This document shows positions 468 through 60,618 of a stretch of DNA of 64,000 bases, in pieces; the stretch's first letter is position 1; the number at the start of each line of letters is the position of its first letter. A program made the translations under genes and the position numbers. The stretch lies in the NCBI GenBank assembly GCA_027262695.1, contig GCA_027262695.1_4722.1; one strand, 5' to 3'. Origin of the DNA: a phage. Below the pieces are notes generated by a model, which ran no database searches, was not told where the DNA came from, and worked only from the letters and a program-made list of their open reading frames with translations.

Positions 468-499
468 CCCTCCTCCAACCCATCAGGGAAGGAGGAGGG
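468..499. terminator. conserved GC-rich hairpin (family copy 1) between convergent genes
   Basis: ccctcctcc-aaccc-atca-ggg-aa-ggaggaggg inverted repeat; lies between the stop of the + gene (452) and the stop of the - gene (509). Confidence 0.6.
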
Positions 500-508
500 C
501 ATATGCCG

Positions 509-1414
509 TCAGGCTACGTATAACGTTAGATAACCTTCAATGAGGGTGTTCATTACACTGAGTTGGAGAACGACAGCTTTACTAACATCCGTACGCACCC
601 CGAACGGTAGCGTTTTGAAGTGCTCTGGATCCGTAATAACTTTCGCGTTTTGTAGGTTAAGCGATCCTGGTATCGCTGACAATACCCAACGATCGTTAAC
701 CGTCAGACCAACGATCTCTTCAGAAAGTCCTAACTTCAGAGTGTTCATTTCTGCAATCAGGGCTTCTGAATGCGCATCGCCCGATGTTAACGTGTAACCA
801 TCGGTTAACGCCGTCAACACCGCATCCGATACGAACCAGTTGTACGATACGATCGCACCTGGTAGCTTATCGCTATCCCGATCGATGATGTAGTTAAGAC
901 CAGCTAACATGTTGTTACGGATGAGGTTGTTCAGGTCGTTATGACCTGATGTCAACTCAACAAGCAGTTGACCGACCCAGACTTGGTTACCGGGTTTCGG
1001 TGTTATTACAACCTGTATCGGCTGTCGGGATTTGTCCAGATCAGCATCAACGATTTCGGTTTTATTCAGCAGGATACCGTACGTTGAGGCTAAGACAGGC
1101 AATACCTCAGAAACCTTGGTCAGTGTATCTAAGGTTTCGATTTCTATCGGCCAACGATGTTGCCCACCAGACCAAATACCGAGTTTGCTAAGATCGATAC
1201 GGTTGTAATAGATGTCGACGGAGTTCACGAGCCCGGAACCCGGTTGTGGGTGCACGGTCAACATACTGTTGCGTTTGTATCCCGTGCTTTCAGAAGCCTC
1301 ACCGATAACCAGCTTATCCAGCGTCACACCCCGAGCATCGAAATCGCTATGTTTTCGAATCAGTCGGAAGAGAATTTCCTTTGATTCTAGCCCCAGGATT
1401 TCACTGTACTCCAT
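509..1414 (-). CDS. hypothetical protein, paralogue family A (possible virion/tail protein)
   Basis: 301 aa ORF; shares YYNRIDL, STYGIL and NDRWVLS motifs with the ORFs at 2331-3182 and 3193-4128. Confidence 0.6.
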   Translation of the reverse strand: MEYSEILGLESKEILFRLIRKHSDFDARGVTLDKLVIGEASESTGYKRNSMLTVHPQPGSGLVNSVDIYYNRIDLSKLGIWSGGQHRWPIEIETLDTLTKVSEVLPVLASTYGILLNKTEIVDADLDKSRQPIQVVITPKPGNQVWVGQLLVELTSGHNDLNNLIRNNMLAGLNYIIDRDSDKLPGAIVSYNWFVSDAVLTALTDGYTLTSGDAHSEALIAEMNTLKLGLSEEIVGLTVNDRWVLSAIPGSLNLQNAKVITDPEHFKTLPFGVRTDVSKAVVLQLSVMNTLIEGYLTLYVA

Positions 1415-1429
1415 TTAACACCCCTTAGG

Positions 1430-2314
1430 TTACGGTAGGATTTCTGCACCGGTTGGACCTGCCTTACGGGCTTCCAACGCACCAAGGTCGTATTTCAACG
1501 TTAACGTATCGTTGGTGGTGTAGAGGTTGTGGTACGTTGAAATCAGGTCGGTAACTTGAGCTCCTACGATTTCGTTCATATCGAAGTTGGAACCTTGACC
1601 GTCATCAGCACGAACGATTTTATCGCCCGCAGAGACTATTCCAATTTCAGAAATAACCGCGTACTCTTCACCACCCTCGGTGAGCTTAGCCACATTGCGG
1701 TATTCGTTAATATCCCACGGTGTCCAAACCAGAGACACCTTGCAGCTGTAATCGTAATACTCACCTGTCGCCACTAAAATTCCGGTGGTCGGAATATCCG
1801 GTCGTGGCGGGTTGAGGTTCACATCGGTGGGATGCCATTCGATGGTCTGAGCAACACCATCAATGTATTTGGTATAACGCATGGAGCGGACAACGTTATC
1901 GAAATCGATGCGGCGACCGTAATAACAGATGTACTTTTTACCGCTTTCCAGCGTCTCGATACGCCGTAACCCAAATTTAGCACGTTCGTCCGTGGTTAAA
2001 TCGTTACCCACTTCACGCATTACAAATGGCTTGATCTTCCACGGTGAAAGATTGCTTGCTTCATGGGCGATCGGCATCGAGGAAGGGATACCGTTCGCAT
2101 TACGGATGAATTCATGACCCAGGTTACCGATACAGAAGTAACGTACGGCAGGATTACCTTCAGGGTAGATCTTCGCTTGGATCTGAAGTTTTTCGTTCAG
2201 GGTGCTATGTTCTTCCCACGCGTGAGGAAGTCCCAACGTCAGGTTGGTTTGTACTTGACCACCGATAATCGTACGAACGATACGATCGGTAGCACGGATT
2301 TGTGTAGAAGCCAT
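1430..2314 (-). CDS. hypothetical protein, distant member of family A
   Basis: 294 aa ORF packed tightly in the same minus-strand operon; contains YYGRRIDFDNV resembling the family A YY(D/N)RI motif. Confidence 0.55.
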   Translation of the reverse strand: MASTQIRATDRIVRTIIGGQVQTNLTLGLPHAWEEHSTLNEKLQIQAKIYPEGNPAVRYFCIGNLGHEFIRNANGIPSSMPIAHEASNLSPWKIKPFVMREVGNDLTTDERAKFGLRRIETLESGKKYICYYGRRIDFDNVVRSMRYTKYIDGVAQTIEWHPTDVNLNPPRPDIPTTGILVATGEYYDYSCKVSLVWTPWDINEYRNVAKLTEGGEEYAVISEIGIVSAGDKIVRADDGQGSNFDMNEIVGAQVTDLISTYHNLYTTNDTLTLKYDLGALEARKAGPTGAEILP

Positions 2315-2330
2315 GTCTTTTCCTATTTAA

Positions 2331-9545: not shown

Positions 9546-9578
9546 CCGTTCGTAAAAAAAAAAAATAACACATAGTTA

Positions 9579-9613
9579 ACCTTCTCCCCAACCCGGAAGG
9601 GAAGGGGAGAAGG
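9579..9613. terminator. conserved GC-rich hairpin (family copy 2) with upstream A13 tract
   Basis: ccttctcccc-aaccc-ggaa-ggg-gaa-ggggagaagg; A-run 9552-9565 gives a U-tract after the hairpin on the minus-strand transcript; lies between convergent genes. Confidence 0.65.
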
Positions 9614-14379: not shown

Positions 14380-14418
14380 CACACACTCCTTACAGAAAGT
14401 TGCTTAAGCAGATTAAAG

Positions 14419-15801: not shown

Positions 15802-16013
15802 TGATTATCCTCCCTCAAACAGACAACATACATGCATAATGCACGTCCCTTTTCTTGTTATCATCACAACGACAGTCGACGGTTTCAGCATCATTCTTAG
15901 CGCGAGAACGACCTTACGTGTTGTCTATGCCTTTTTTCATTGAAGGCTTCTGTCACCTAGGTAATGTAAGCGTCAAATTTTTTCTAATCTAACCCAGCAT
16001 AACAGCATAATAA

Positions 16014-16043
16014 CCTCCCTCAGCCCGTAAGGACCGAGGGAGG
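16014..16043. terminator. conserved GC-rich hairpin (family copy 3) downstream of the putative major capsid gene
   Basis: cctccctc-agcccgtaaggacc-gagggagg; located 3' of the stop at 16143 on the minus strand. Confidence 0.5.
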
Positions 16044-16142
16044 TTGACTTATGTATCACGGTGCCGGATGAATGTCCGGTGTAATGAAACCATCCGCAAC
16101 GTTGTTTTCAAGAACTTCATCCAACGAAGCAGCTCCGGTATT

Positions 16143-18365
16143 TCAGTTAGTCTGAACCGGCAGCTTGATGTTTTCAGTGTAGACCTTACGCAGGTTCACA
16201 ACGTTGATCAGACCCAGCAGCGGGCAGTTGTTCACGAAACGGCAGCGCGGCTGAACCATGGTTTCTTTAGAAACCTGACCGTTACGAGTAACCTGAGCAA
16301 CGGATACCAGTTCCGGTACGTACAGGAACATACCGAAGGTCAGCGGATCCGGAGAACCCTGGATACCACGAGACAGGGTCACGAAGATCTTGTCGCGCAA
16401 CATGACGTTCGGGTTGTCTACAACCACGAAGTTGAAGCTTACACCCACGGTGCGGAAGTCACCGTCGGTCTGCAGGAACTGCGGGATGTAGTTGTCGGTT
16501 GCTACTACGCAACGCGGTTTCTCATCAGCGTTGGAAGACAGCAGCTGCAGAGCTGGCTGATAACCAGACTCGGAGTACATGCGGTACGCCATTTCACGAA
16601 TCACGTTCATGATCGCAGCGGATACTTCAGCACGACGTTCTGCAGTGGTGGTACCCTGAACGGATTTCTCCAGGTCCAGATCGATTTCTTCGAACCACGG
16701 ACGAATCAGGTAACGACCGAAACCTTCGATCTGAATGTCACCGAACTGACGGAAGCGAGAAGTTGCAACCGCTTTCAGGGCGTCTTTGTAGCTGAACAGT
16801 TTCTCAACCATCAGGTTGTCGAAACGTGCGTTAGCTGCTTGGATCAGAACATCCAGGTCAGCAGCGTTTTCTTCCCAATCCAGCGGACGAGGAATGGAGA
16901 ACGGAGCCAGCAGGCCGATTGCGTAACGTTCTTGCTTCATGTTGAAGTCAAGATGTTTACCGCGTTCACGACGGTTGCTGTTGTTACGACGGATACGCAG
17001 TTCGTAACCCACCAGTTTGAAGCTCAGGTCTTCAGCCAGATCTTTGAATTCCTGGCTCTTACGCGGTTGTTCGATGTTGTCCTGGTCAACCAGACGATAC
17101 AGTTCAGCGGTAGCGCCATTAACACGCAGACCCGCTTTCTCTACGTTGGAAGAACCGTAAACTTCGATCGCCAGCTGAGCAGCAGATTTCGCATCGATGA
17201 TGTCCTGCAGCGCTTCAGCTTTCGCACCTTTAACGTCAACGGTGTTCTCATCAACGAAGATGGAGTGGGTGTCGAACGCCAGGGTCATTTTGCGGAAGTC
17301 GCCTTCCAGGGATTTCTGGAAACCGTTGGTGATCAGACCGGATACGTCGAACGGAACGTAAGAGGTTTTGCTGTGCTTGGTGGATTTAATTTCCACCAGG
17401 ATTTTGGTCAGCGTGATCTGAGCATCCAGCGCGTCAGTGTTGTCGCTGTAACCGTTAGCCAGAATGCTATCGTCTTCAGCGATACCGATCATGTCGATCA
17501 GTTTATCAACCGCCAGGTAAGACGTTTTGTAAGTAACGCCTTTGATTTCGATGTCGCGCGGAGCAACGATGGTTTTATCAACGAAGTACTGCGCGTTAGC
17601 ATCGTCAGCACGGTAGATCGGATGCAGATCGGTCACGTCGTTGGACAGAACGTCGTTGTACATGAACGCATCCAGCAGCGGACGACGTACCCAATCAGCC
17701 GGAGTACCATCACCGTTACGACGCAGGTGGTTGAACACCAGCGGACGACGGAAGGAAACGTCATAACCGATCTGGTTCGGAGCCAGAACGATGGTGTTGT
17801 ACAGTTCGTTACCCATGCGGCTCAGACGAGACGCCTTCACGTTGAACACAACGGAGTACGGCATCATGTCACGCAGTTCTTTCTGGTCGTAGGACAGCTG
17901 AACCAGTTCTTCAGATTCACAACCGCAGGAATCCGCAGCCATCATGACGAAGTTAGCGCTGTCAACATCACGGCCGGACGGCGAGGTGCTGATGTTCATG
18001 GAACGTGCTTGTTTAGCATATTCCACCGGGTTGCCATGTGCCAGCATGATCAGCGCTGCAGCGCGAGCCTGCTGTGCGTTCATGGTGAACAGCTGTTCTT
18101 CAATACGTTGCTTCTCTTCCGGAGTTGTGGTTTCGAAGCCCAGCATGGACAGAACCGGTTCTTCAGCTTTACGGATGTCGCTGCTGAAGCTCTTAACATC
18201 CATTTCGTTAACCAGTTTGTCCATGGATTTGAAATCAACCTTAGAAGCAGATTCCATAGACAGGAAGGTGTTTTCCAGACCTTTGTCTGCTGGTTTGCTA
18301 CCATTAGCGGTCAGGAACTGGCGAGTGGCCGCGACCTGTTGGCTAAGAAGGGTTTTATCATTCAT
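16143..18365 (-). CDS. putative major capsid protein (highly expressed virion protein)
   Basis: 740 aa, the size class of jumbo-phage major capsid proteins; codon usage strongly biased to CTG/CGT/GGT/AAC/TTC unlike its neighbours; helical N-terminal region resembling a propeptide; the function is inferred, not matched to a database. Confidence 0.45.
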   Translation of the reverse strand: MNDKTLLSQQVAATRQFLTANGSKPADKGLENTFLSMESASKVDFKSMDKLVNEMDVKSFSSDIRKAEEPVLSMLGFETTTPEEKQRIEEQLFTMNAQQARAAALIMLAHGNPVEYAKQARSMNISTSPSGRDVDSANFVMMAADSCGCESEELVQLSYDQKELRDMMPYSVVFNVKASRLSRMGNELYNTIVLAPNQIGYDVSFRRPLVFNHLRRNGDGTPADWVRRPLLDAFMYNDVLSNDVTDLHPIYRADDANAQYFVDKTIVAPRDIEIKGVTYKTSYLAVDKLIDMIGIAEDDSILANGYSDNTDALDAQITLTKILVEIKSTKHSKTSYVPFDVSGLITNGFQKSLEGDFRKMTLAFDTHSIFVDENTVDVKGAKAEALQDIIDAKSAAQLAIEVYGSSNVEKAGLRVNGATAELYRLVDQDNIEQPRKSQEFKDLAEDLSFKLVGYELRIRRNNSNRRERGKHLDFNMKQERYAIGLLAPFSIPRPLDWEENAADLDVLIQAANARFDNLMVEKLFSYKDALKAVATSRFRQFGDIQIEGFGRYLIRPWFEEIDLDLEKSVQGTTTAERRAEVSAAIMNVIREMAYRMYSESGYQPALQLLSSNADEKPRCVVATDNYIPQFLQTDGDFRTVGVSFNFVVVDNPNVMLRDKIFVTLSRGIQGSPDPLTFGMFLYVPELVSVAQVTRNGQVSKETMVQPRCRFVNNCPLLGLINVVNLRKVYTENIKLPVQTN

Positions 18366-20785: not shown

Positions 20786-20812
20786 AACGCAAAAAAAAAA
20801 ATCGTACGGTTC

Positions 20813-20843
20813 CCTCCTCCAACCCGGAAGGGAAGGAGGAGGG
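20813..20843. terminator. conserved GC-rich hairpin (family copy 4) with upstream A11 tract
   Basis: ccctcctcc-aaccc-ggaa-ggg-aa-ggaggaggg; A-run 20792-20802; between convergent genes. Confidence 0.65.
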
Positions 20844-22228: not shown

Positions 22229-22303
22229 CGTATTTACCTTTTTATGTTAGGTGGGTTGCGGATAGAAGAATCAATGCATAGTCTGATTTAAGTTTGTTAA
22301 GAC

Positions 22304-23137
22304 TTACTTAGCTTTCGGATTATACGGACTAACATGTTGCTGCATTCGTTGGATTGTTTCGTAGTACGGGTTATAATGAGTGAACATATTGTTGTATGGA
22401 TGGTAGCCGTAAAGCGCATTTTGCCTTGCCGGTGAGAAACCTTTTTGAGAAGGACGATTTGAATTTACTGCGAGCACGTAGTAAACCAAATTTTGATGGT
22501 CGAATGTTCCTTCGTTTTTGAAGGTGTCAGCATAGGCGCTTACCGCAGGAGCAAGTCTATCACCATCGGTTGTAATGATCGTACCATCCGGGTAAACTTC
22601 TCGAACGATACACCATGTTCCGATGAGAACATCTTCGGGTGTCTTATTACTGTATCCGACTGTAACGGTAAGGTAAGTATCGAATCCTCCTGAGCACTGC
22701 GGATGTCGATAAATTGGGCCAGTCGTTTCTGCTTTATCGGTTACGGTTTTTTCGTAAGGACACTTCTTGATTGCTTTGATGTAAATATCGGGAATCTCTA
22801 ATACCGCCTTATCAGGATGAATTCTAAAATGATTCTTGAGTAAGCCCAAAAGGTTGGTTGCTACCACGTCGTGAGGTAGTACCCAATAACTGGTAGGGGA
22901 GTCATCGCCGTCTCTCTTGGAGAAGATGACTGCCTTGTTATCGTCGTCTGGTAGACTGAAGAAAACGATTGACTCAATAGGCATAGCCAGCTCACCACAA
23001 CAGGGGTCAGCGGATAACACCCAATTGTATTTGTTGTCCGTTTCGTATAAATGTTCTGTTCTGTCGATACTACGATCCTTCAATTGGATGTAGCGTTCAC
23101 GTTGTTTCTTGGTTAATTTACGGTAGATAGTGGTCAT
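22304..23137 (-). CDS. hypothetical protein, paralogue family B
   Basis: 277 aa; PIYRHPQCSGGFDTYLTVTVGY and REVYPDGTIITTDG align with PIYVHPECHTTYDRYLTITGG and REIYPDGRITTFCG of the next gene. Confidence 0.6.
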   Translation of the reverse strand: MTTIYRKLTKKQRERYIQLKDRSIDRTEHLYETDNKYNWVLSADPCCGELAMPIESIVFFSLPDDDNKAVIFSKRDGDDSPTSYWVLPHDVVATNLLGLLKNHFRIHPDKAVLEIPDIYIKAIKKCPYEKTVTDKAETTGPIYRHPQCSGGFDTYLTVTVGYSNKTPEDVLIGTWCIVREVYPDGTIITTDGDRLAPAVSAYADTFKNEGTFDHQNLVYYVLAVNSNRPSQKGFSPARQNALYGYHPYNNMFTHYNPYYETIQRMQQHVSPYNPKAK

Positions 23138-23185
23138 GTTAAGCTCCTTGATTACGGTAAGGATGATTTCGGTTTTGTGATGATG

Positions 23186-23213
23186 GTAGGACCACTTTGT
23201 TTAGGATCCTACC
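23186..23213 (-). terminator. hairpin downstream of a family B gene
   Basis: ggtagga...tcctacc inverted repeat immediately 3' of the stop at 23223. Confidence 0.35.
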
Positions 23214-23222
23214 AGTACGGGA

Positions 23223-23996: not shown

Positions 23997-24023
23997 GATA
24001 GTATCCTCGATTAGTAAGGTTGG

Positions 24024-24512: not shown

Positions 24513-24543
24513 CCCTCTCCCAACCCGTAAGGGAAGGGAGAGG
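24513..24543. terminator. conserved GC-rich hairpin (family copy 5)
   Basis: ccctctccc-aaccc-gtaa-ggg-aa-gggagagg; just 3' of the stop of the 24549-25916 gene. Confidence 0.6.
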
Positions 24544-24548
24544 AAGTA

Positions 24549-25916
24549 TTAAACGGTTGGACGAACGGTGTTGTCTTTTTCCGGTGCAAGCCAGAGTGTG
24601 ACGGTACCGTGGCAGGTCCATTGGGGTTCACGTACAGAAGAACCCGCCATCGTAACAGCGCAATCGGTACGCATAACAACGCCGTAAGCTTCGCAAAGGT
24701 TATTGTCTTGCATCCAAACAACTTTAGCAGGCATGCCAGGATACAGTAAATCCATGTTGGCATGTTCCCATACCAACTGCATCGTTCGACCGCGTAACCC
24801 AGCAGTATTACTTAATTCCCGCCAACGGTTATCCGTTACCCGGCCCATCCCTTTTGCTACCTTCACGTTATCACTACGTTCTTCCGTCACATACTCGCTT
24901 ACGTTCACGGTACGACTGATGATCGTATCACCGCCCTTCGATAACGTCATTCCCTGGCTCATCTGACTCGCTGAAACAAAGCGTCCACCCGCATTACCTA
25001 ACAATGAAGCTGCGTTGCTGATATCGCTGACCGACGCACCTCGTGTACACGCGATCTCCACGTATTTGTCACGATTGATCCAGGTATTTTCCATGCCGGG
25101 AAACATATCGGCCGGATAATTGTAAAAAATCGCCGTACGTCGACCGTCGGAGAAACGGGTTTCGTCATACAGAGGGTAGATATACAAATACGGTGATTGG
25201 TAATAGCAACCAACGTCCGCTGAATAAATACCGACCTGGTTCTGGATCTTATCAACAAGATCCATCGCGTTGGTACCATGAGGAAGAATCAATAACTTGA
25301 ACAAATCATTGTTATTCGGTGCGACAATATCAACACCCTGCATTTTGAAGCCGGTATCCGCTTCAACAGCAGAAAGGATTTTACTGAATTCGAGTCGCAG
25401 TACATCCAGAACTTTCGATCCAGTATAGTTCTCACCGGTTTCTGACTGCATGAAGCTTTCAAGAACAGGATCGAACAACTGGAATTGAAGATCGACCATC
25501 TGCTCGTAATCTTTCTTCGCAGAATCGGTTGCAGTACGTTCATCGGTTGCGGACATACGACTGTCTACGGTGGTTAAACAAACTGCCCGATAGACATAAG
25601 CTTGTGCGGCATCGTCTACGGTTTGGCGTTGTCCACGCATCAGACTGTACGCCTGCACGATGACGCGCATTTTAAGTTGTTGCTGGTACGGTAAAATGTA
25701 TTTTCCGTAACTGCCCGGAGGGAACTTTACAGAGATATAAAGTTCATCTCCTGCGTTACGTTCATAGTCTCGATACGTGTGGACTTGAGTCACTAAAGGA
25801 ACAGACACCGTCATTGACGGCGTGATTAATTCCGCGGTGACTTTATACGCAACAGCAACTGCTTCCTGCGCAAATGTACCGATATACCGTCCTAACGGCG
25901 TCTGTTTGTAATCCAT
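24549..25916 (-). CDS. hypothetical protein (possible virion component)
   Basis: 455 aa ORF. Confidence 0.6.
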   Translation of the reverse strand: MDYKQTPLGRYIGTFAQEAVAVAYKVTAELITPSMTVSVPLVTQVHTYRDYERNAGDELYISVKFPPGSYGKYILPYQQQLKMRVIVQAYSLMRGQRQTVDDAAQAYVYRAVCLTTVDSRMSATDERTATDSAKKDYEQMVDLQFQLFDPVLESFMQSETGENYTGSKVLDVLRLEFSKILSAVEADTGFKMQGVDIVAPNNNDLFKLLILPHGTNAMDLVDKIQNQVGIYSADVGCYYQSPYLYIYPLYDETRFSDGRRTAIFYNYPADMFPGMENTWINRDKYVEIACTRGASVSDISNAASLLGNAGGRFVSASQMSQGMTLSKGGDTIISRTVNVSEYVTEERSDNVKVAKGMGRVTDNRWRELSNTAGLRGRTMQLVWEHANMDLLYPGMPAKVVWMQDNNLCEAYGVVMRTDCAVTMAGSSVREPQWTCHGTVTLWLAPEKDNTVRPTV

Positions 25917-29810: not shown

Positions 29811-29847
29811 GCATAAAGCCCACCCCGAAGGGCGGGCTGTTTATGCG
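29811..29847 (-). terminator. long imperfect hairpin downstream of the 1124 aa gene
   Basis: gcataaagcccaccc-cgaa-gggcgggctgtttatgc, 7 nt 3' of the stop at 29854. Confidence 0.5.
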
Positions 29848-29853
29848 TACGGA

Positions 29854-32800
29854 TTACTTGTAGGCACCGCAATGGGCTTTGATGAGGAAAAGCACCGCTT
29901 GCATCGGTTTATTGAACTGTTGCCATAACGTCAATGCCGGATGGAACAGCCAATCTTCCAGGCCAAGAACAATACCGTAGTTAACGACATTATTAACATC
30001 ATTCTCAACGTTGAGTTCACTGTCCAGGAATTTGTCGATGGAACGCAGGGTCTGCATGGCGTTATCAGCGATAAGCCAAGCTTCATGCGCTTCCCGAGCT
30101 GCACGCAGCAGTGCTTCCAGTTCGCTGGTGCTGGCAACCGGCAACTCTTCGCTGATGAGATCATCGGACACCGTGAAGCTACGGTTGATACCGGTATAGA
30201 TCCACTGCATCAGTTTCGCTGCTTCCTCGTTCGGGTTGTTGCGCGTTGTCGCATAGGTCGCGCTCATCTTCACGATATGCGTTTCACCAAGATACGCTTT
30301 GGACCCAACGCCTTTACGATCGCTGTCTTTCCACGGTTGTACGGCAGCAACCATAAGCTTATCCCATTTCTGAATAGGAATACGCTTCAGACCAACAACC
30401 GATCCGGCGGATGTTTCGGACTGGTTGCTCTTCCGCACGTCGCTGAGTTCACGATCGATAGCAACGATTAATTCACGCGTCATGTTACCAAGCATTTTGA
30501 TTTCACCCAACGCAGCGATGAGCTTCTTCACATCGGTAACAGGTTCACCACCGATGGTAAGATGACGGATGAAACGTTTCAGAATAATCCGTTCTGCTGC
30601 TGGGTTGCCGCGACGCGCTTTAGCCAATGCTTGCTGCGTTTCGGCGAACAGCTTATCCCATGGAGCCGTAGCGGCGGTATAGTAACGGTGGTTGGTTTCA
30701 ATCCAGTTACCGATACGGTTGACCGCGCTCTTAACGGTATCCATGAATCCTTCCATCGCAATTTCGGTAGCTTCGACGTTACCCTGGAAGTTATCAGGAC
30801 CGATCTCACGTGCCGCTACCAGAATACCTTCCACCGCGCTCACCGCATGACGACCGATAGCCAGATTTCGCTGCGCTTCTTCAGCACGCTCAACGAATTC
30901 CACTACCGCAGGATCGTCAACGATTTCCGCCTCAGCAACAACACGAGTACCAGCATCGCCTTCCAGTGTCTCGATGGTGACAACCGGATCGTTTTCACCG
31001 GCAACATCCTGATACTCTTCCTGTTTGAGATCACCGTTATCAGCCGCTGCGACAGCGGTGAGTATACGAACGGTGACATCGCCCAGTTCTTTTGCAGCGA
31101 ATCCGTAAACAGTACATGCGGTCGTTGCAAAGTTCATCAGGGTGCGTGTGCGCTGCGTGGTGTAACGTGCGCCTGATTCGTTTTCCACTTTGTCGAGATC
31201 ACGGAGTAACTGCTCAGCCGTCTCCTGAAGTTGAGTAGCTGCTTTCAGGAGGTCTTCGTCGAACAGTTTTGTTGACGCATCGATCAGCATTTCAACGCTA
31301 ACGTTGGACGGTACAGCATCATCCTGTTGTTTCATGGTGCTAAGTTCGTCACGGAACTCACGAATACCGTTTAACGCATCGTCGATGGAATACCCGAACG
31401 CTTTCACACCCGCCATTCCAAGAGCCGCTTTCATTTCACCCGGATGCTGAACTTGCTCGCCTTCCTTGCTGTTCTTTAACTCATCGAAATATTTCTTCGA
31501 CGCGTCCGCAATACGTTTACTGTCTTTGACCGCGTTTACGATCTTATCGACAGATTTAGCATCGTTTGCGAGCAGAGTATCCAGTTTATTCCACTCAACG
31601 TCAACCTTCTTGGCATCGCTTGGTGGTGGAAGCAGTTTCATCACTGGTGTTGTGCGTTGTTCTTTGGTGAGCTTATCGGCCTTCTCATCGATTTTCTTTT
31701 TACTAACACCGAAGAGTTTTCTTAGGCGTGCCACGATTGCTTTTAAGAACTTCGCGACCGCTTCGTAAACCGATTTCAGAATCTGTTTAAAGCGACCTGG
31801 CTGCTTTTCCCCGTCTTCCAGATTGAGATCGCTATTCAGTGCGACATCAAGCTGTTTGTACGATTCCATGATGTATTCGTCTTTGATTTCAGGACGAATC
31901 TCGAAGCTTTCCATCGGACCTTCAGCCGGACGGAATTCCATTTTCAGTTCGCCTTGCAGAGTAGGGTCGACAATGGCGATCGCTTCACCCTGACCATCAG
32001 CGTTAAAGCGTTCAGCGTAACGAGTACGACGAACAATAACACTCTTATCCCCCTCAAGACGACGGACCACCATGGTGCCAGGAATGTACGGTTGTTCTGT
32101 TTCGATGACGGTTACATCTGCCTCACCTTCGCCGAGAATAACCGATGCACGCTGTTCAACAACAGGAACATCTAATACGCCACGTGCTTCCAGCTCTTGA
32201 TGAATTTCGAACGACTCTTGTTTCAGATCTTCATCTTCTTCGTTTTCGTCTTCATCACCGTCACCTTTGGTGTCTTCATTACCCTCGGTGGTTTTGGTGT
32301 CGGTAGCATCAGCGTCGGCGTCTGTGTTGGTAGGTTCTTCGGACGCGGGTTCGGTGGTGCTATCCTCGGTGGACGTTTCGTCGGCGTTATCGACGTCAAC
32401 ATCACCTTGCAGCTCCGTTTCTTGAGCAACGGCGTCGGCTTTCTGCTCACCAGTATTGCCGTCATTAGCGTCGACAACAGGTTGTTCGTCAGCGACGGTA
32501 TCTTCAACCTTTTCTACTTTCTCCACAACACGTTTAATCACGGTGACTTTGATGGGTTCTTCCGTCGTTTTGGTTTCTGGCGTCGCCTCGGCTACCTCAG
32601 CTGCTGTTTCAGCAACAGGTTCTGCTTTTTCCGGTTCGACGACATTGCCTTTAACACCTTCGGTGGTTTCTGCAGGTTGCGTCGCCTGTTCGATTTGTGC
32701 CGGATTGGTTGGATCGATGGCGTTAGCCGCATCCTGAATCTTGTTCTTCAGGTTGTCACGGTCAGCGTTAACGGTCGGATCATTGGTCACTTTCGGTGCC

Positions 32801-33228
32801 GGTGTTTCGGTCGGTGCGTTTGCTGGATATGGGTTCTTCGGCTCTTCACCAGGTGCGGTCGGTACGGCGATCAGCACGAACGGCTGCACGTCGTTACCGT
32901 CTTCCATGGTAACGCCACCGTTGCTCGGTGTGAAACGAATTCGTAAACTACCATCGATAGGACGGGTCACAATAACAGCACGTACGACATCCTCGCCGTT
33001 CTCATCCGTGCTACGAATTACGCGAACGGCATCATCAACAGTAGCCCCTTCCTCGAGCGTATCTGATTCGATCGTCGCTTCGATGCTGTCTGGCCGTGCC
33101 GCTGTAGGTAATGCGATCACCTGCTCTTCTTTATCAGTAGAAAGCGTTGCTTTGACTTCGATCGGTGTATCGCCGCTTTCCAGGTTAAGATGCGACTTAC
33201 GCATCAGATCAGCTAACGATTTTTTCAT
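29854..33228 (-). CDS. large protein of paralogue family C with acidic low-complexity N-terminal half
   Basis: 1124 aa; Asp/Glu/Thr-rich region (EDENEEDEDLKQE); amphipathic helix ILKSVYEAVAKFLKAIVARLRKLF matches the family C signature. Confidence 0.6.
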   Translation of the reverse strand: MKKSLADLMRKSHLNLESGDTPIEVKATLSTDKEEQVIALPTAARPDSIEATIESDTLEEGATVDDAVRVIRSTDENGEDVVRAVIVTRPIDGSLRIRFTPSNGGVTMEDGNDVQPFVLIAVPTAPGEEPKNPYPANAPTETPAPKVTNDPTVNADRDNLKNKIQDAANAIDPTNPAQIEQATQPAETTEGVKGNVVEPEKAEPVAETAAEVAEATPETKTTEEPIKVTVIKRVVEKVEKVEDTVADEQPVVDANDGNTGEQKADAVAQETELQGDVDVDNADETSTEDSTTEPASEEPTNTDADADATDTKTTEGNEDTKGDGDEDENEEDEDLKQESFEIHQELEARGVLDVPVVEQRASVILGEGEADVTVIETEQPYIPGTMVVRRLEGDKSVIVRRTRYAERFNADGQGEAIAIVDPTLQGELKMEFRPAEGPMESFEIRPEIKDEYIMESYKQLDVALNSDLNLEDGEKQPGRFKQILKSVYEAVAKFLKAIVARLRKLFGVSKKKIDEKADKLTKEQRTTPVMKLLPPPSDAKKVDVEWNKLDTLLANDAKSVDKIVNAVKDSKRIADASKKYFDELKNSKEGEQVQHPGEMKAALGMAGVKAFGYSIDDALNGIREFRDELSTMKQQDDAVPSNVSVEMLIDASTKLFDEDLLKAATQLQETAEQLLRDLDKVENESGARYTTQRTRTLMNFATTACTVYGFAAKELGDVTVRILTAVAAADNGDLKQEEYQDVAGENDPVVTIETLEGDAGTRVVAEAEIVDDPAVVEFVERAEEAQRNLAIGRHAVSAVEGILVAAREIGPDNFQGNVEATEIAMEGFMDTVKSAVNRIGNWIETNHRYYTAATAPWDKLFAETQQALAKARRGNPAAERIILKRFIRHLTIGGEPVTDVKKLIAALGEIKMLGNMTRELIVAIDRELSDVRKSNQSETSAGSVVGLKRIPIQKWDKLMVAAVQPWKDSDRKGVGSKAYLGETHIVKMSATYATTRNNPNEEAAKLMQWIYTGINRSFTVSDDLISEELPVASTSELEALLRAAREAHEAWLIADNAMQTLRSIDKFLDSELNVENDVNNVVNYGIVLGLEDWLFHPALTLWQQFNKPMQAVLFLIKAHCGAYK

Positions 33229-35750: not shown

Positions 35751-35782
35751 CCCTCCTCCAACCCATTAGGGAAGGAGGAGGG
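35751..35782. terminator. conserved GC-rich hairpin (family copy 6)
   Basis: ccctcctcc-aaccc-atta-ggg-aa-ggaggaggg between the co-directional family C genes. Confidence 0.6.
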
Positions 35783-38460: not shown

Positions 38461-38494
38461 CCCTCTCCCTTCCCTGACGGGTTGGGAGAGGGAA
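38461..38494. terminator. conserved GC-rich hairpin (family copy 7, inverted orientation)
   Basis: ccctctccc-tt-ccc-tgac-ggg-tt-gggagaggg, the reverse-complement orientation of the other copies. Confidence 0.55.
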
Positions 38495-39887: not shown

Positions 39888-39914
39888 GCTTAAGCAAGCT
39901 GTAATCTTGCTTAA
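39888..39914 (-). terminator. hairpin overlapping the stop of the 39911-40441 gene
   Basis: gcttaagcaag-ctgtaat-cttgcttaa inverted repeat. Confidence 0.35.
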
Positions 39915-46739: not shown

Positions 46740-46771
46740 CCCTCCTCCAACCCGTAAGGGAAGGAGGAGGG
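46740..46771. terminator. conserved GC-rich hairpin (family copy 8)
   Basis: ccctcctcc-aaccc-gtaa-ggg-aa-ggaggaggg; flanking aaacataac...aatatg is shared with copy 1; between convergent genes. Confidence 0.65.
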
Positions 46772-50401: not shown

Positions 50402-50432
50402 CCTAGGGGAAGGTTTTCAGCCTTCCCCTAGG
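50402..50432. terminator. GC-rich hairpin (family-related copy 9)
   Basis: cctaggggaagg-ttttcag-ccttcccctagg between co-directional large genes. Confidence 0.55.
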
Positions 50433-55028: not shown

Positions 55029-55210
55029 TTTACACTCTCTAAATTTACGTAAATTTAAGGGTTGGTTAAAAGCAGGTTGGCTGGCCTCGCCAATCTGTCA
55101 CAGCCGTTGTGCTGCAACGGCATTCATAGAAATACCTTCGGTTAAAAACAACAGAACGTGAGGATGATATAGAAATTCACCTTCTAACCTTTATTAGAGT
55201 CTATCACGTT
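55029..55210. promoter_or_regulatory. divergent intergenic region containing a hairpin
   Basis: 182 bp between divergent genes; inverted repeat gccgttg-tgctg-caacggc near 55102-55120; no promoter consensus assigned. Confidence 0.3.
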
Positions 55211-56710
55211 ATGAGCGAACAAGAACAAAAACTCAAGAAGAAACTGCTCGGTATTCAATGTCGACACATCAGTTATAACGAAGCCAACGACGGCAGTAAG
55301 AACGATCTCATGATTGCAAAAGAGATCATGTTCTTCGATGACAACACACAAGCCACCAACCTGCGGTTCTTTGAAAACCACAAACGTCCGTTTTGGGTTA
55401 CAGTTGAAAGCAAACGTAAGAACAAATATAAAAAGGAAAGCGAGAAGCTCTCAAACGTACGTCGTTATGAGGTACGCCAAAGCGAACTGGTTGAGAAAAT
55501 CAGTTCGGTGCTTTATAAACGACGTGCTGACGATAACACCCGTTTACAACAGCTTGCGCGGAGTCCTTACCTCTATGGAACGGACGTTAGCGCCAGCTGC
55601 TATTTAAAAACCCAGTACAATACAAAATGGCCGGAATACGTTGATAAACTGCCTGCTTCTATCGCATGTTTCGATATCGAAACCGACGTTGTCCACGGGC
55701 ACGGTAAGATCGTTTGTATGTCTATTACAATGGGCTACAACGCGATTCTTTGTTACACCCAGGACTTCGTTGGTCATATTCCGAATGCGATTGAGAAAAC
55801 CCGTGAGAAGATTCGTTATTACCTGGCCGACCGTTTAAACACCAAAGAGGATCCTCACGCCTTTGAAAAATACCATTACGATATTCGCATTGTAGAAAGC
55901 CCTGCGCAAGCGGTGATTCAATGCATGCAGAAGGTGCACGAATGGCAGCCGGATTATCTCCTTGGCTGGAACATCGCGTTCGATATTCCGCGTATGCTCC
56001 AGGCATTGCAGGACGAAGGTTATCGTCCCGAGGATGTTTTCTCCGATCCTCGCGTACCACCGAAATACCGTTTAGCACGTTGGGTACCCCCGAAAACCGA
56101 CAAGGTATCGGCGTCAGGTCGTAAAACCAACCTGACGCTTGAACAGACCTGGCCGATGTTTTATACGATGGCCACCTATCAAGTCATGGATGCCATGTGT
56201 GGTTATAAGTTCGTTCGTTTAGGAAGACCGGATGAAGGACGCTACTCACTCGATGCGGTGTTAGAGCGTAATAAATGCCATACGAAATTAAAAGCAATTC
56301 CTGGTACAGAAGGGTTCACAGAGCTCGCCTGGCACGAAGAGATGCAAACGAACCATCAAATCGACTACGGCGTATATAACCTTTGGGATAACCAAGGTAT
56401 TGAGGCGTTGGACCAGAAAACAAAAGACTATTCGATGACCATCCCGATTCGTTTAGCGGCGTCGGATTTGAAAGATTTCAGTTCCAACCCTAAACGTATC
56501 TGCGATAAACTTTTCTTCGTTTATCTTAACCGTGGGGAAGTCATGGGATGCACCGCCGACGACATGACCCAGGAAGAAGATAAATGGGTTATCTCACGAG
56601 CAGGACATATCGTCACATTACCGTGCGATCTCATGGCGGACAACGGCATTCATCTCTTCTGGGATATGCCGAATCTAAGAAGCTATATTCGATTATTTGT
56701 TGCGGATTGA
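55211..56710 (+). CDS. family-B-DNA-polymerase-type 3'-5' exonuclease domain protein (exon 1, split polymerase candidate)
   Basis: 499 aa; Exo I CFDIETD, Exo II LLGWNIAFDIPRM, Exo III YGVYNLWD; no polymerase motifs A/B/C present; the 3' end may include intron-derived sequence. Confidence 0.6.
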   Translation: MSEQEQKLKKKLLGIQCRHISYNEANDGSKNDLMIAKEIMFFDDNTQATNLRFFENHKRPFWVTVESKRKNKYKKESEKLSNVRRYEVRQSELVEKISSVLYKRRADDNTRLQQLARSPYLYGTDVSASCYLKTQYNTKWPEYVDKLPASIACFDIETDVVHGHGKIVCMSITMGYNAILCYTQDFVGHIPNAIEKTREKIRYYLADRLNTKEDPHAFEKYHYDIRIVESPAQAVIQCMQKVHEWQPDYLLGWNIAFDIPRMLQALQDEGYRPEDVFSDPRVPPKYRLARWVPPKTDKVSASGRKTNLTLEQTWPMFYTMATYQVMDAMCGYKFVRLGRPDEGRYSLDAVLERNKCHTKLKAIPGTEGFTELAWHEEMQTNHQIDYGVYNLWDNQGIEALDQKTKDYSMTIPIRLAASDLKDFSSNPKRICDKLFFVYLNRGEVMGCTADDMTQEEDKWVISRAGHIVTLPCDLMADNGIHLFWDMPNLRSYIRLFVAD

Positions 56711-56777: not shown

Positions 56778-57884
56778 ATGTCTAGTAGTTACGAGTATCC
56801 AAATATTACTGAATGTGTAATTTCTGAAGAAGGTATCTTCGACCTTGATATGAAACCGTTACCGCTTATCGTGGAAGACGGGATTTCATACGTCAAGCTT
56901 GACTGGTATCGCGGTCCTGGATTGTACGATGCGGGTCTTGTTGTAATGCGTAAGTTACACGCTATCAACATATACGAAGACCTGTTAGATGAAGCACATT
57001 CGCTGTATATCGATGGAAACCCGGAAAACATCAAACGTGATAACCTGCTTTATCGTTTTAAGAACGGTAAGTTGGAACATAAGGGTTACCCAGGCTATTA
57101 CTACGTCCCGTTCTTTACACATTACGTGATAAATGAACAAGGCGAAGTGATCAGTCTATTAACGGGTCAGAAGAAATCGTGGACACGATCAAAAGGAGAT
57201 CCAAAGCGAAACAAACGCGCAGGGTATCTCTATCAACGTGTCGTTAACGACAACGGCTTCACAGCCCAGATGTTTCAACACCGTGCGATGGGTTACGTGT
57301 TCTTGGAATACGGTGCCGATGTGATGACTAAGATCATCAATCACAAGAACGGCATCAAATGGGATAACCGTCCCGGCAACATTGAATGGACAACCTATTC
57401 CGAGAACAACAAGCATGCGGTTGATAGCGGTCTTCGTACCGAAGGCTTGCATCCCGTTAAGGTTAAGGATTACAACACCGGTGAAATCAGGGTATTCCCA
57501 ACGATCGCTGCGTGCTGTGCTGCTTACCCTTGCTTGGAACGTAAACGTGTTTGGTATTGGATGACGCGTAAAACGAAATTCATGCCAGCCTGCAATCTGT
57601 ATTTCAAAGAAGTCGATGATGATACACCATGGCCAGAATGGCAGATTGGACAGCACCGCCGTCTTCAGGAATACGATATGGGCCAGCCTATCGCTGCTAT
57701 CGATAAACAAACCGGTAAACGTTATGTGTTCGCATCAGTCGCTCATGCACAACGAGAGACAGGTGTTTCTAACGTGACTATCACGAAGTACTGTCGTAAC
57801 AGACTCACAGAAGGTCGTTCCCCATTCATCTTCCGTTATTTCGAAGATGTCGGCTCGATGCCTGTAGGTCTTAACGACGCTTAA
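56778..57884 (+). CDS. HNH homing endonuclease (HNH_3 type), intron-encoded
   Basis: 368 aa; strong taaggag SD; catalytic motif INHKNGIKWDNRPGNIEWTTYSENNKH; located 5' of the group I ribozyme core. Confidence 0.75.
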   Translation: MSSSYEYPNITECVISEEGIFDLDMKPLPLIVEDGISYVKLDWYRGPGLYDAGLVVMRKLHAINIYEDLLDEAHSLYIDGNPENIKRDNLLYRFKNGKLEHKGYPGYYYVPFFTHYVINEQGEVISLLTGQKKSWTRSKGDPKRNKRAGYLYQRVVNDNGFTAQMFQHRAMGYVFLEYGADVMTKIINHKNGIKWDNRPGNIEWTTYSENNKHAVDSGLRTEGLHPVKVKDYNTGEIRVFPTIAACCAAYPCLERKRVWYWMTRKTKFMPACNLYFKEVDDDTPWPEWQIGQHRRLQEYDMGQPIAAIDKQTGKRYVFASVAHAQRETGVSNVTITKYCRNRLTEGRSPFIFRYFEDVGSMPVGLNDA

Positions 57885-57889
57885 CCGAT

Positions 57890-58240
57890 TTTAGGTCCCG
57901 GTGGGGATAACGCCCCCACCGGTTTCCCGTTAATTGCTGGAACCCCCTAAAGCCTTTCGACCACAGCGGATTCTGAAAAGAAAGACGTTACGGTTAGAAA
58001 ACAGAAAGGATGTTCGTAAGGAAACGATAAATGGGCAATCAGCAGCGAAGCTTCTAAGGGCATGCATAAGCAATAAGACCTAAGAAGAACGTTCAACGAC
58101 TATCCGGTCGCGCGGAGTAAGGGACAAGCGTCCTCAAACACGGGAGGGGTGCGAAAGCATTCCATGATATAGTCTGCTCCTAAGTGAAAGCTTAGGCGGG
58201 TGGAACACACCGGCATAAGAGTTGCGTCTTATGTGGACAA
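57890..58240 (+). ncRNA. group I intron catalytic core (IA-like)
   Basis: P2-like hairpin ccggtgggg-ataacg-ccccaccgg (57898-57921); P aattgctggaa (57932-57942); Q aatcagcagc (58037-58046); R gttcaacgacta (58091-58102); S gatatagtc (58166-58174); P9-like hairpin cctaag-tgaaag-cttagg. Confidence 0.65.
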
Positions 58241-58498: not shown

Positions 58499-58536
58499 AT
58501 TGAAACATTCAAAAAAAAAAAGAAACGCATGCGAAG

Positions 58537-58568
58537 CCCCTCCCCTGGCGGAAGCCGGAGGGAGGGGT
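58537..58568. terminator. conserved GC-rich hairpin (family copy 10) flanked by an A-tract and T-runs
   Basis: cccctccc-ctggcggaagccgga-gggagggg; A11 at 58511-58521 and gttttatgcgttttatgc downstream; between convergent genes. Confidence 0.65.
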
Positions 58569-58584
58569 GGAGGTTTTATGCGTT

Positions 58585-59122: not shown

Positions 59123-59141
59123 GAAGGTGTTGTTCACCTTC
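59123..59141 (-). terminator. hairpin 2 nt downstream of the stop of the 59143-59601 gene
   Basis: gaaggtg-ttgtt-caccttc. Confidence 0.35.
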
Positions 59142-59142
59142 G

Positions 59143-59601
59143 TTAGATATCATCCGGTGTATATTCGATGTTGTAAACGACGTAACGGTCTGACGCATGA
59201 ACGACGAGCTCGACGGGGAAATCATAATGCTTGGTTTTGTCTCGAACATGCTGGGTAAAGAGATCCGTATAACGGATTAAGTCTTCCACGGTATACTCAG
59301 AAGGGAAGAAGACATCGATGGTTATTGACTTTTCATAGAGGCGTATGACCAGCTTATCCAGAAGGTTGGCATATTGGTTACACGGGGCGACGTCCAGAAG
59401 ACAGAAATCACCGTCTTCTGCGTCTCGTGGTATCCACATCGTGGTATCTTGTAACGACGTTTCAAGGATCTCGAAAATGCAGTCTGCTGTAAGTCTTAGT
59501 TTATCTGTTATTTCACGGTTAGGTGAATAATGGTCACGAATGCTTTTCACTGCGTCTTTGATGGAGAAAGTCATCGTTGATGTTCCTTTAAAAGATATCA
59601 A
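59143..59601 (-). CDS. small protein, tandem paralogue family D
   Basis: 152 aa; MTFSIKDAVKSI...FEILETSLQD aligns with SVKSIAEAA...FDYLESSLQD of the next gene. Confidence 0.55.
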   Translation of the reverse strand: MISFKGTSTMTFSIKDAVKSIRDHYSPNREITDKLRLTADCIFEILETSLQDTTMWIPRDAEDGDFCLLDVAPCNQYANLLDKLVIRLYEKSITIDVFFPSEYTVEDLIRYTDLFTQHVRDKTKHYDFPVELVVHASDRYVVYNIEYTPDDI

Positions 59602-60124
59602 GCCATGAGGATGGGGAAACCAGTTCGCTTGTAAAACATTGCGTACCGTCGGTATTTACCGCATGGGTAAGTTTATAAGCCTTAACGGCCGGTTTACTGC
59701 CGATGGTGAGGACGGTTGTCATGTCGAGCCATTCGGCACGATGGAGAAATGCCATATCAGCCACCTTCTGTAGACCATTTGCTTCAAAATCGATACGGTC
59801 GTTAAGCGGCATCAATCGGATTTCAATACGTTCTTTGAAGAGTTGAAACGTTACTGAAAACTCATGCGGTTTGGCATTAAGACATAAAGGCCCTTGATGG
59901 AAGTGTTGGTATGCTTCATTCTTGTTATGCTCGAAAACCCAGCAGTTGTGGACAAGAGAAGCGTCTTGTAACGAGGATTCCAGGTAGTCAAATACCTTGT
60001 TTATTGTTTGCTCGAGCAGAGACGCTAATGAATCTGGATATCCAGCAAATGCTGCTTCGGCGATCGATTTTACTGAAATGGTATTGTTCTGGTTCATCTC
60101 TTTATTCCTTGTCGGATTCGTCAA
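59588..60124 (-). CDS. small protein, tandem paralogue family D
   Basis: 178 aa; shares the SLQD-containing N-terminal helix. Confidence 0.55.
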   Translation of the reverse strand: MTNPTRNKEMNQNNTISVKSIAEAAFAGYPDSLASLLEQTINKVFDYLESSLQDASLVHNCWVFEHNKNEAYQHFHQGPLCLNAKPHEFSVTFQLFKERIEIRLMPLNDRIDFEANGLQKVADMAFLHRAEWLDMTTVLTIGSKPAVKAYKLTHAVNTDGTQCFTSELVSPSSWLDIF

Positions 60125-60554
60125 TGTATTTGGTGTCGTAAGACATATGCTGGATTAATTTTCTAGGCTCGATGAAAATACGACACGAGATAAATACATC
60201 GGGATCATACTGCTCTACACAACGCCCGAAAACCAGCTTTGCAGTCTGGCGCATCAAGGCTATTTCCCGATCATTCATCTCATTATCGAATTCGATGTTT
60301 ATCGTGATTTTATCAGGAAATAAATAGATAGAGTAATTGCCACTAATACCACCATCATCAAAACGATAATCGTTGTGGTAATGGTGAAGCTTACCGTCGT
60401 GTGTCGTCTGGTACCATCCGATGATACTATCAAGTCCCACACCCAAGCGGCGTTCGAATGCCCAATTAATAACATCCTCGACAACGGATGCGGGCGTGGG
60501 ACCATTGAATAATCTATCCAGACGCTTTTTCATCGATTTGGTTTTCACGTTCAT
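60102..60554 (-). CDS. small protein, probable family D member
   Basis: 150 aa ORF within the array. Confidence 0.5.
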   Translation of the reverse strand: MNVKTKSMKKRLDRLFNGPTPASVVEDVINWAFERRLGVGLDSIIGWYQTTHDGKLHHYHNDYRFDDGGISGNYSIYLFPDKITINIEFDNEMNDREIALMRQTAKLVFGRCVEQYDPDVFISCRIFIEPRKLIQHMSYDTKYIDESDKE

Positions 60555-60584
60555 TGTTTCTTTTCCTGTTATAGTCGGTATACA

Positions 60585-60618
60585 GCCCTTCCCCGGCCTT
60601 GATGGCTAGGGAAGGGGC
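60585..60618. terminator. GC-rich hairpin (family-related copy 11)
   Basis: gcccttcccc-ggccttgatggcta-gggaaggggc followed by ctatg. Confidence 0.5.

Follow-up and report, generated by a model that had tools for sequence, protein, structure and literature searches.

We identified, in a 64,000-nucleotide stretch of phage DNA (the window), a set of intergenic hairpins that are very probably chimallivirus transcription terminators, acting bidirectionally at convergent gene junctions. That transcripts end at these sites in this phage we infer from the terminators mapped in phages phiKZ and 201phi2-1. The predicted signal combines two elements. One is a GC-rich RNA hairpin of high stability with a pyrimidine 5' arm and a purine 3' arm; the other is a short sequence, tTATG-Y-Y-G-T, that lies 1-3 nt past the stem and would take the place of the bacterial U-tract. 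Because of the pyrimidine/purine asymmetry of the arms, both DNA strands would encode a like hairpin, and tails on both strands at a convergent junction would give a CATA...hairpin...TATG palindrome and thus a bidirectional terminator.

The window is 88.9% identical to the E. coli jumbo phage Goslar in a sequence comparison, and by this measure its source is a Goslar-like nucleus-forming jumbo phage (Chimalliviridae). Goslar itself forms a nucleus and encodes RNA polymerases of its own, and RNA polymerase beta/beta' genes are annotated in its genome. At positions 12583-14382 the window holds a homolog of GP123, a subunit of the phiKZ non-virion polymerase (tblastn E = 2.7e-53), indicating a phiKZ-type non-virion multisubunit RNA polymerase; Goslar_00039 is a GP123 homolog too (E about 1e-53, 24% identity).

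An earlier note on this DNA had listed eleven hairpins, all of which we found within 1-2 nt of the positions it gave, and a twelfth hairpin-plus-tail site, absent from that list, lies at 29817-29838. All twelve are intergenic, as had been claimed for the eleven, though noncoding DNA makes up just 5.2% of the window. A minus-strand stop codon lies 4-97 nt before each of the twelve sites, and a plus-strand stop also precedes 5 or 6 of them. Similarly, a pyrimidine-first GC hairpin is present at 18 of the 20 convergent junctions of Goslar. This placement, together with the match to the phiKZ terminator motif described below, supports the earlier proposal of bidirectional terminators.

The description of the hairpins as eleven near-identical copies was overstated, since they comprise 7-8 members of one family and three other GC hairpins. 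Four sites in the window, and no others, match the consensus CCCTCCTCC-AACCC-NNNN-GGG-AA-GGAGGAGGG exactly (468, 20812, 35751 and 46740; shuffles expect 0.00). These copies share a two-tier shape, in which a 2x2 internal loop separates the outer stem, 9-10 bp of pyrimidine/purine pairing, from a CCC/GGG apical stem capped by a tetraloop. The sites at 9580, 24513 and 38461 are variants of this shape whose stems differ by compensatory C-G to U-A changes, and 16012 is a looser member, so that seven sites share the two-tier form, or eight with 16012. A covariance model (R1) built from these eight sites recovered exactly its eight source sites when run on the window (E <= 5.5e-10). Its scores for 58537 and 60585 were no higher than 16-20 bits, and it did not detect 50402.

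Within the family, the 5' arms are 80-100% C/T in all members, and every stem change is a C-G to U-A transition that keeps the asymmetry of the arms. In the covariation analysis 93% of cells are paired and 9 of 13 pairs have changed on both sides, a level reached by none of 500 shuffles. Folding of the sites gave minimum free energies of -21 to -35 kcal/mol (z = -2.1 to -7.3), and a comparison of orthologs shows that stems are kept while loops vary. The likeness of the purine arm to a Shine-Dalgarno sequence, to which the earlier note had drawn attention, is incidental, because this arm is sequestered by pairing within the stem, and phiKZ, a Pseudomonas phage, has the same purine arm. An Rfam scan of the whole window at the gathering threshold found no family covering the hairpins; the scan matched only a group I intron (57871-58196).

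The tail is the more widely shared part of the signal. The CATA...TATG flanks noted earlier proved real as an enrichment of TATG near the stem, but not as a simple palindrome: they reflect a directional tail, tTATG-Y-Y-G-T (the consensus of 37 distinct tails), that on the gene-end strand begins 1-3 nt past the stem. Of 52 tails read in the gene-end direction, 38 have TATG no more than about 10 nt from the stem, as do 6 of 17 in the other direction, compared with 2.6% of background positions. A match of at least 7 of 9 positions to the phiKZ tail TTATKYYGT is seen in 32 of 52 and 2 of 17 tails, respectively, against a background of 6.5%. At co-directional junctions a good tail is present on the transcribed strand only, and at convergent junctions on both strands; it is absent at 50402, at 60585, and on the minus sides of 20812 and 58537. 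Across Goslar, TATGCYGT occurs 40 times versus 14.75 expected by chance. Half of these copies (20 of 40) directly follow a strong hairpin (6% background), unrelated hairpin sequences included, and the hairpin-less copies in Goslar show no excess over chance. These data show that the shared element is the tail and not a particular stem sequence.

The same signal has been mapped in phiKZ. ONT-cappable-seq of phiKZ defined 61 terminators with the common motif BCCYCCCCHWWDGGGRRGGBYTTATKYYGT and, where genes converge, 6 bidirectional terminator regions (Putzeys et al. 2024, PMC10914365). In 201phi2-1, motif A (n = 59) is described as strongly resembling the phiKZ motif, and 15 terminators are bidirectional (PMC11512511). 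We scanned 50 kb of phiKZ and found 9 such hairpin-plus-tail sites, every one with TTATG or TATG; the site between convergent genes 129 and 130 carries tails on both strands. The sites in our window thus resemble phiKZ terminators in their GC hairpin with a pyrimidine 5' arm and a purine 3' arm, in their TTAT(G)YYGT tail 1-3 nt past the stem, in their intergenic position just past stop codons, with one two-tailed hairpin serving convergent genes, and in the phiKZ-type non-virion RNA polymerase that the phage encodes. They differ in their host, which is E. coli and not Pseudomonas, and in their stems: phiKZ stems are 7-8 bp with a 4-nt loop, whereas the main family here is longer and two-tiered, with an AA/AA or UU/UU internal loop. 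The simple phiKZ-like form occurs in the window only at 29817-29838, and also at some Goslar sites (for example 132985). The difference is a variation of shape, not of plan.

Most likely, then, the signal is one already known from phiKZ, and the Goslar-like sites extend a known terminator type, now to an E. coli-infecting clade. Several orthologs are already labelled putative terminators in the Goslar GenBank record; most sites are unannotated, and a simple sequence rule (a stable GC hairpin followed by tTATGYYGT) would mark transcription-unit ends in Goslar-like genomes. Like canonical Rho-independent terminators, these elements place a stable GC-rich hairpin directly after a gene, and one can serve convergent genes; unlike them, they have no U-tract directly past the stem, where tTATGYYGT stands instead. 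The three long A-tracts reported earlier (A12 at 9554-9565, A11 at 20791-20801 and A11 at 58511-58521) are the only homopolymer runs of at least 9 nt in the window, and the long T runs, found at three sites only, begin 10-15 nt past the stem.

The signal has a limited distribution. The hairpin-plus-TATG class was absent from 100 kb of the Salmonella phage SPN3US, so not every member of the phage family carries the signal. An exact-pattern scan of IMG/VR for the two-tier core returned 108 stretches, among which the real family members come from Goslar and two Goslar-like contigs only; the remaining matches are single and chance-like, without an outer stem. As to other published work, the phiKZ dRNA-seq paper contains nothing on terminator sequence, and in the ChmC eCLIP paper, which used PhiPA3 and not Goslar, no binding motif was found. 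In principle, the mapped phiKZ 3' ends could be products of processing or of exonuclease stops and not of true termination.

Five hairpins lie, or probably lie, at convergent junctions and would serve both strands. The exact-consensus two-tier hairpin at 468..499 (50.5 bits, -26 / -34.6 kcal/mol) separates a plus-strand gene ending at 452 from a minus-strand gene ending at 509, with tails CATATGCCGT (500-509) on the plus strand and TTATGTTTGCCGT (reverse complement of 455-467) on the minus strand; the Goslar record annotates the ortholog, 27746-27777, as a putative terminator. At 9580..9613, the two-tier variant CCTTCTCCCC.../...GGGGAGAAGG (48.8 bits) has the plus tail GCTATGCGCT and the minus tail TTAACTATGTGTTA followed by T12 (the A12 run). 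The exact-consensus copy at 20812..20843 (53.6 bits) has the plus tail TTATGACCGT; its minus side is without TATG and has a T11 run 10 nt past the stem (A11 at 20791). A further exact-consensus copy, 46740..46771 (54.9 bits), lies between a plus-strand gene ending at 46719 and a minus-strand gene ending at 46781, with tails AATATGCTGT (plus) and TTATGTTTGCGT (minus). The hairpin at 58537..58567 (16 bits) is a GC hairpin with the pyrimidine arm first, CCCCTCCC...GGGAGGGG, and a different inner stem. Its junction is probably convergent, between a plus-strand ORF ending near 58505, likely DNA-polymerase exon 2, and a minus-strand gene ending at 58585; its plus tail contains TTTATGCGT, and its minus side has T11 (A11 at 58511).

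The remaining seven sites are assigned to the minus strand. The looser family member at 16012..16045 (44.1 bits, -31.4 kcal/mol) follows the major head protein gene (16143..18365, minus strand) at a distance of 97 nt, and its tail ATTATGCTGTTATGC matches TTATKYYGT at 9 of 9 positions; compared with the Goslar ortholog (43309), its apical part has the opposite orientation. At a co-directional junction 4 nt past the stop of the minus-strand gene 24549..25916, the two-tier hairpin CCCTCTCCC... at 24513..24544 (51 bits) has the minus tail TCTTATGCCGT (9/9) and a plus side without a tail. The twelfth site, 29817..29838 (-20.9 kcal/mol), is a simple 9-bp hairpin with a tetraloop, reading AGCCCGCCC TTCG GGGTGGGCT on the minus strand, and followed by the tail TTATGCTGT; the hairpin lies 15 nt past the stop of the minus-strand gene 29854..33228; the Goslar ortholog, 55080-55101, is again an annotated putative terminator. 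The exact-consensus hairpin at 35751..35782 (52.4 bits; co-directional, 8 nt past a minus-strand stop) has the minus tail TTTTATGGTGT and differs from its Goslar ortholog at 61009 by one compensatory C-G to T-A change. In the co-directional two-tier hairpin at 38461..38492 (52.4 bits on the minus strand; minus tail TTCTATGCTGC), the apical segment has the opposite orientation, TT CCC TGAC GGG TT on the plus strand, and the Goslar ortholog, 63715, has the other one. The site at 60585..60617 (20 bits, -26.4 kcal/mol), at a co-directional junction 13 nt past a minus-strand stop, is a bulged GC hairpin with the pyrimidine arm first and a weak minus tail, TGTATACCG; its plus side reads CTATGTTACG. 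Finally, 50402..50432 (-23.2 kcal/mol) lies outside the family: its perfect 12-bp stem begins with the purine-rich arm, and a TATG tail is missing. This hairpin lies between two minus-strand genes and is identical in Goslar; the next start codon stands only 15 nt beyond it, and expression of the downstream gene must therefore depend on read-through.

The tail also resembles a promoter, and the earlier note had suggested a coupled late promoter. In phiKZ, late promoters recognized by the non-virion polymerase have TATG as their core, transcription starting at the G (PMC4666361), and an unlikely reading of the sites is a cassette in which the hairpin stops one transcript and the TATG restarts transcription for the next gene. 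At co-directional junctions the tail does lie 20-205 nt upstream of the next start codon, and in the window's GP123 homolog roughly 9 of the 14 listed residues of the TATG pocket are conserved. In contrast to the phiKZ late promoter, TATG here goes together with an upstream hairpin and with gene ends, convergent junctions among them, where tails stand equally on both strands, no gene lies downstream and a start would yield antisense RNA only. Moreover, the tail is much weaker on strands without a gene end, TATGCYGT without a hairpin is not in excess in Goslar, and the gene after the 50402 hairpin, with its closely following start codon, must be read through. The reference phiKZ late promoter, P119L, has no upstream hairpin, and published late-promoter logos have been described as very short and weakly defined, which speaks against a hairpin ahead of most late starts. 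The coupled late promoter is therefore not supported, although the tail may have a secondary promoter role at co-directional junctions. Hairpin promoters of the N4 type are recognized by a different type of polymerase and have a 5-7 bp stem and a 3-nt loop; on these differences we rejected them as an identity for the hairpins.

Two further readings assign the hairpins no role in stopping the polymerase. They might be RNA 3'-end stability or processing elements that block 3'-to-5' exonucleases or mark endonuclease sites; their high stability and position at gene ends would fit, 3'-end sequencing alone cannot tell termination from trimming, and 50402 lacks a tail at a place where the next gene needs read-through. 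We consider this very unlikely, because trimmed RNA would lose the conserved, direction-specific sequence downstream of the stem, which points to a function in transcription itself or at a site of cleavage, and because the presence of hairpins at nearly all convergent junctions would fit a requirement to halt polymerases that run into each other. Extremely unlikely are mobile or recombining palindromes, recently spread or homogenized by gene conversion and without a direct role in transcription. PeSL cassettes of T4-type phages and REP-like palindromes are repeated, near-identical intergenic stem-loops at module boundaries, and the hairpins resemble them in being repeated and intergenic, with some near indels relative to Goslar. 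Indeed, four identical stems occur inside one 64-kb window, the apical segment flips between orthologs, and several gene-cassette indels versus Goslar have an end no further than about 65 nt from a hairpin. Unlike PeSL or REP elements, however, the hairpins have no associated promoter motif or mobility evidence that we could find, and every site in the window has a same-junction ortholog in Goslar and, where covered, in two Goslar-like contigs. No presence/absence polymorphism was seen among Goslar and the Goslar-like contigs compared, only inversion of the apical segment. The orthologous positions in four Goslar-like genomes thus reject the recent spread that had been considered earlier. In addition, the differences between paralogs are compensatory and keep pairing, placement is strictly after stop codons with a directional tail, and in phiKZ, transcript ends have been mapped at the equivalent elements (PMC10914365).

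With terminators as the preferred reading, a testable question is why the terminator tail carries the TATG of the phage polymerase's late-promoter core. The phiKZ beta-like subunit GP123 binds TATG of the non-template strand beneath its beta-lobe, and polymerase specificity with only four bases has been called puzzling in the literature. One speculative answer, which we regard as doubtful, is that terminator tail and promoter core are the same signal, read by the same protein pocket. The literature that we searched contained no mention of a promoter-terminator link via TATG, and polymerase structure papers do not discuss termination or pausing. In such a mechanism, the elongating polymerase would re-bind TATG as the hairpin forms, making the promoter core a pause/release element that replaces the U-tract; at co-directional junctions, the re-bound TATG might let the polymerase restart, giving stop-start transcription. 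SPN3US, in which the 100 kb scanned showed no TATG-tailed hairpins, keeps about 5 of the TATG-pocket residues, compared with about 9 of 14 in the window's GP123 homolog.

A GC-rich hairpin is present at each of the eleven positions named in the earlier note, and all fold stably (-21 to -35 kcal/mol). Their description as eleven near-identical copies was overstated: seven to eight belong to one family, and three (58537, 60585 and 50402) are other GC hairpins. The exact consensus stem of the family occurs four times in the window and never in 100 shuffles; its two-tier shape is shared by hairpins 9580, 24513 and 38461, whose C-G to U-A substitutions are compensatory, and 16012 is a looser family member. 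In an alignment of eight members, 93% of cells are paired and 9 of 13 pairs show double-sided changes, while none of the shuffles or slid registers of this alignment came near the observed pairing. Run on the window, a covariance model built from the eight returns them alone at E <= 5.5e-10; 58537 and 60585 reach no more than 16-20 bits, and 50402 is missed. In the whole genome of the related Escherichia phage vB_EcoM_Goslar, the model identifies about 17 strong members, and in IMG/VR the two-tier family is confined to Goslar and a pair of Goslar-like contigs, of 237.5 kb and 182.9 kb.

Goslar is a jumbo phage that forms a nucleus, and several RNA polymerase beta/beta' genes are annotated in its record. 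It aligns with the window's first 20 kb over their full length at 88.9% identity, and the remainder of the window is collinear with it except for a few cassette indels. The intergenic location of the hairpins held up: all sites lie within the noncoding DNA that makes up 5.2% of the window. All of them follow a minus-strand stop codon at a distance of 4-97 nt; 468, 9580, 20812 and 46740 also follow a plus-strand one, at 15-34 nt. Hairpin 58537 probably sits at a convergent junction too, as a plus-strand ORF ends near 58505. In Goslar, a pyrimidine-arm-first GC hairpin occupies 18 of the 20 convergent gene junctions, the places where polymerases arriving from opposite directions have to be halted. 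The Goslar record itself annotates "putative transcriptional terminators", one of them the ortholog of hairpin 468.

To characterize the sequence 3' of the stems, we scored 24 nt beyond every stem, on either strand, at 35 window and Goslar sites. Of 52 tails on a strand where a gene ends, 38 have TATG no more than about 10 nt from the stem, compared with 6 of 17 where none ends and 2.6% of random positions; these counts are non-independent, since window and Goslar sites are orthologs, but the contrast between directions is still large. Similarly, 32 of the 52 gene-end tails match at least 7 of 9 positions of the phage phiKZ motif TTATKYYGT, as do 2 of the 17 others and 6.5% of random positions. 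Aligned on TATG, 37 distinct tails give the consensus tTATG-Y-Y-G-T, beginning 1-3 nt past the stem. The CATA...TATG flanks noted earlier are real at convergent junctions, where the predicted stem extends through them, but they represent a directional tail and not simply an extended palindrome: the palindromic appearance arises because the tails on the two strands are reverse complements. The 8-mer TATGCYGT occurs 40 times in Goslar (14.75 expected), and a strong hairpin directly precedes 20 of these copies (6% background); the roughly 20 hairpin-less copies are about the chance expectation. In the window, a hairpin precedes five of six copies. Several of the preceding stems are unrelated in sequence (Goslar 3508, 55080, 110466, 132985, 176545, 180588 and 225526), and the tail is a module separable from stem sequence. 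A twelfth hairpin-plus-tail site, at 29817-29838, was absent from the earlier list. Intergenic hairpins lacking TATG also occur at 35692-35714, 39890-39914 and 62743-62764; one of them falls within the following gene's 5' leader, some 35 nt past the 35751 terminator when read along the minus strand.

This architecture parallels that of mapped terminators in phiKZ. ONT-cappable-seq of phiKZ mapped 133 termination regions, 61 of which have in common 5'-BCCYCCCCHWWDGGGRRGGBYTTATKYYGT-3', in which a TTAT region comes after a stem-loop; bidirectional regions, six in number, were located between convergent genes (PMC10914365). In phage 201phi2-1, a motif reported as strongly resembling that of phiKZ was described (n = 59), along with 15 bidirectional terminators (PMC11512511). 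Our scan of 50 kb of phiKZ identified nine instances of the terminator motif, all with TTATG or TATG, for example GCCCTCCC TTCG GGGAGGGC TTTATGTTGT; one instance, between convergent genes 129 and 130, is tailed on both strands, an architecture identical to that in the window. The window elements resemble phiKZ terminators in arm asymmetry, tail, spacing and placement, and differ in their two-tier, longer stem, yet simple phiKZ-like forms occur in the same genomes. Their assignment as terminators is well supported by this anatomy and by signal homology to the mapped phiKZ sites. We found no hairpin-plus-TATG class in 100 kb of Salmonella phage SPN3US (positions 1-100000), also nucleus-forming, whose terminators within that span are of the ordinary hairpin-plus-T-run type, with the purine arm frequently leading; the signal is therefore clade-restricted within the family.

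The earlier note also proposed coupling of the hairpins to a late promoter. In phiKZ, TATG is indeed the core of the late promoters used by the non-virion polymerase, with transcription starting at its G (PMC4666361). However, the tails occur on both strands at convergent junctions and are weak where no gene ends, hairpin-less tail copies show no excess, and the reference phiKZ late promoter P119L has no upstream hairpin. On these grounds the proposed coupling is not supported and we read TATG as part of the terminator, with a secondary restart role possible at co-directional junctions. In a 2026 structure, the TATG of the non-template strand is held by GP123, the beta-like subunit of the core, and not by the sigma-like GP68; the binding pocket lies under the beta-lobe and is incomplete in the transcribing complex (PMC12809450). 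The window encodes a GP123 homolog (ORF 12583-14382, minus strand; tblastn E = 2.7e-53, 24% identity to phiKZ GP123). In a weak four-sequence alignment (~24% identity), this homolog keeps about 9 of 14 listed pocket residues and that of SPN3US, which shows no TATG-tailed hairpins in 100 kb, about 5; this is only a correlation. It would fit a tail that the polymerase reads as a signal to pause or release, and raises one mechanistic question, why the terminator tail shares TATG with the late-promoter core; the literature examined makes no mention of a link between terminator tail and TATG-binding pocket.

The three reported A runs were confirmed, and no other homopolymer run in the window reaches 9 nt. 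Each (A11-12; 9554-9565, 20791-20801 and 58511-58521) separates the stop of a plus-strand gene from the hairpin of a convergent junction, and minus-strand RNA would accordingly have U11-12 from 10-15 nt after the stem. Comparable runs occur in Goslar at 36846, 48107, 146605 and 200229.

An ortholog of each window site occupies the corresponding junction in Goslar, which argues against recent spread of the hairpins; neither sequence-specific spread nor Shine-Dalgarno mimicry found support. Loops differ between orthologs, and one stem pair shows a compensatory change between 35751 and Goslar 61009. At several sites, the apical AA-CCC-NNNN-GGG-AA of one ortholog is inverted to TT-CCC-NNNN-GGG-TT in the other, with outer stem and flanks unchanged. 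These inversions span the internal loop, 3-bp stem and tetraloop (window 16012-16045 and 38461-38492; L060:8898-8929 versus L076:277-308 in related genomes). Such a flip-flop would be the expected product of recombination between the two stem arms, and a segment that flips while its flanks stay put suggests that either orientation works.

Gene cassettes absent from Goslar occupy 22288-24447 (in place of 139 nt of Goslar), 59131-60084 and 60670-62255, and several cassette boundaries fall no more than about 65 nt from hairpins 24513 and 60585. This hints that repeated terminators mark or promote module exchange, in a sample too small for a test. Near 58 kb, a DNA polymerase ORF (55211-56710) is followed by an HNH/NUMOD1-type ORF (56778-57884) and, just after it, a plus-strand group I intron (57871-58196; Rfam RF00028, 69.9 bits); the plus-strand ORF continuing to about 58505 is probably exon 2. 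We rejected the GC hairpin at 57898-57922 as a terminator, as it is part of this intron. The two phages differ in the endonuclease region, and of the two group I introns annotated in Goslar's record, neither is at the DNA polymerase locus. The first ~55 nt of that record repeat its last ~55 nt (L002:1-55 and L006:37253-37307, stretches of the record). The duplicated stretch contains an A16 run as well as a portion of a terminator hairpin, and probably reflects an overlap left by assembly where the record was arbitrarily linearised. Finally, the small annotated plus-strand ORF Goslar_00145 (L004:34413-34640) overlaps both the family hairpin at Goslar 134585-134616 and the end of the adjoining minus-strand gene, and may be a spurious gene call.
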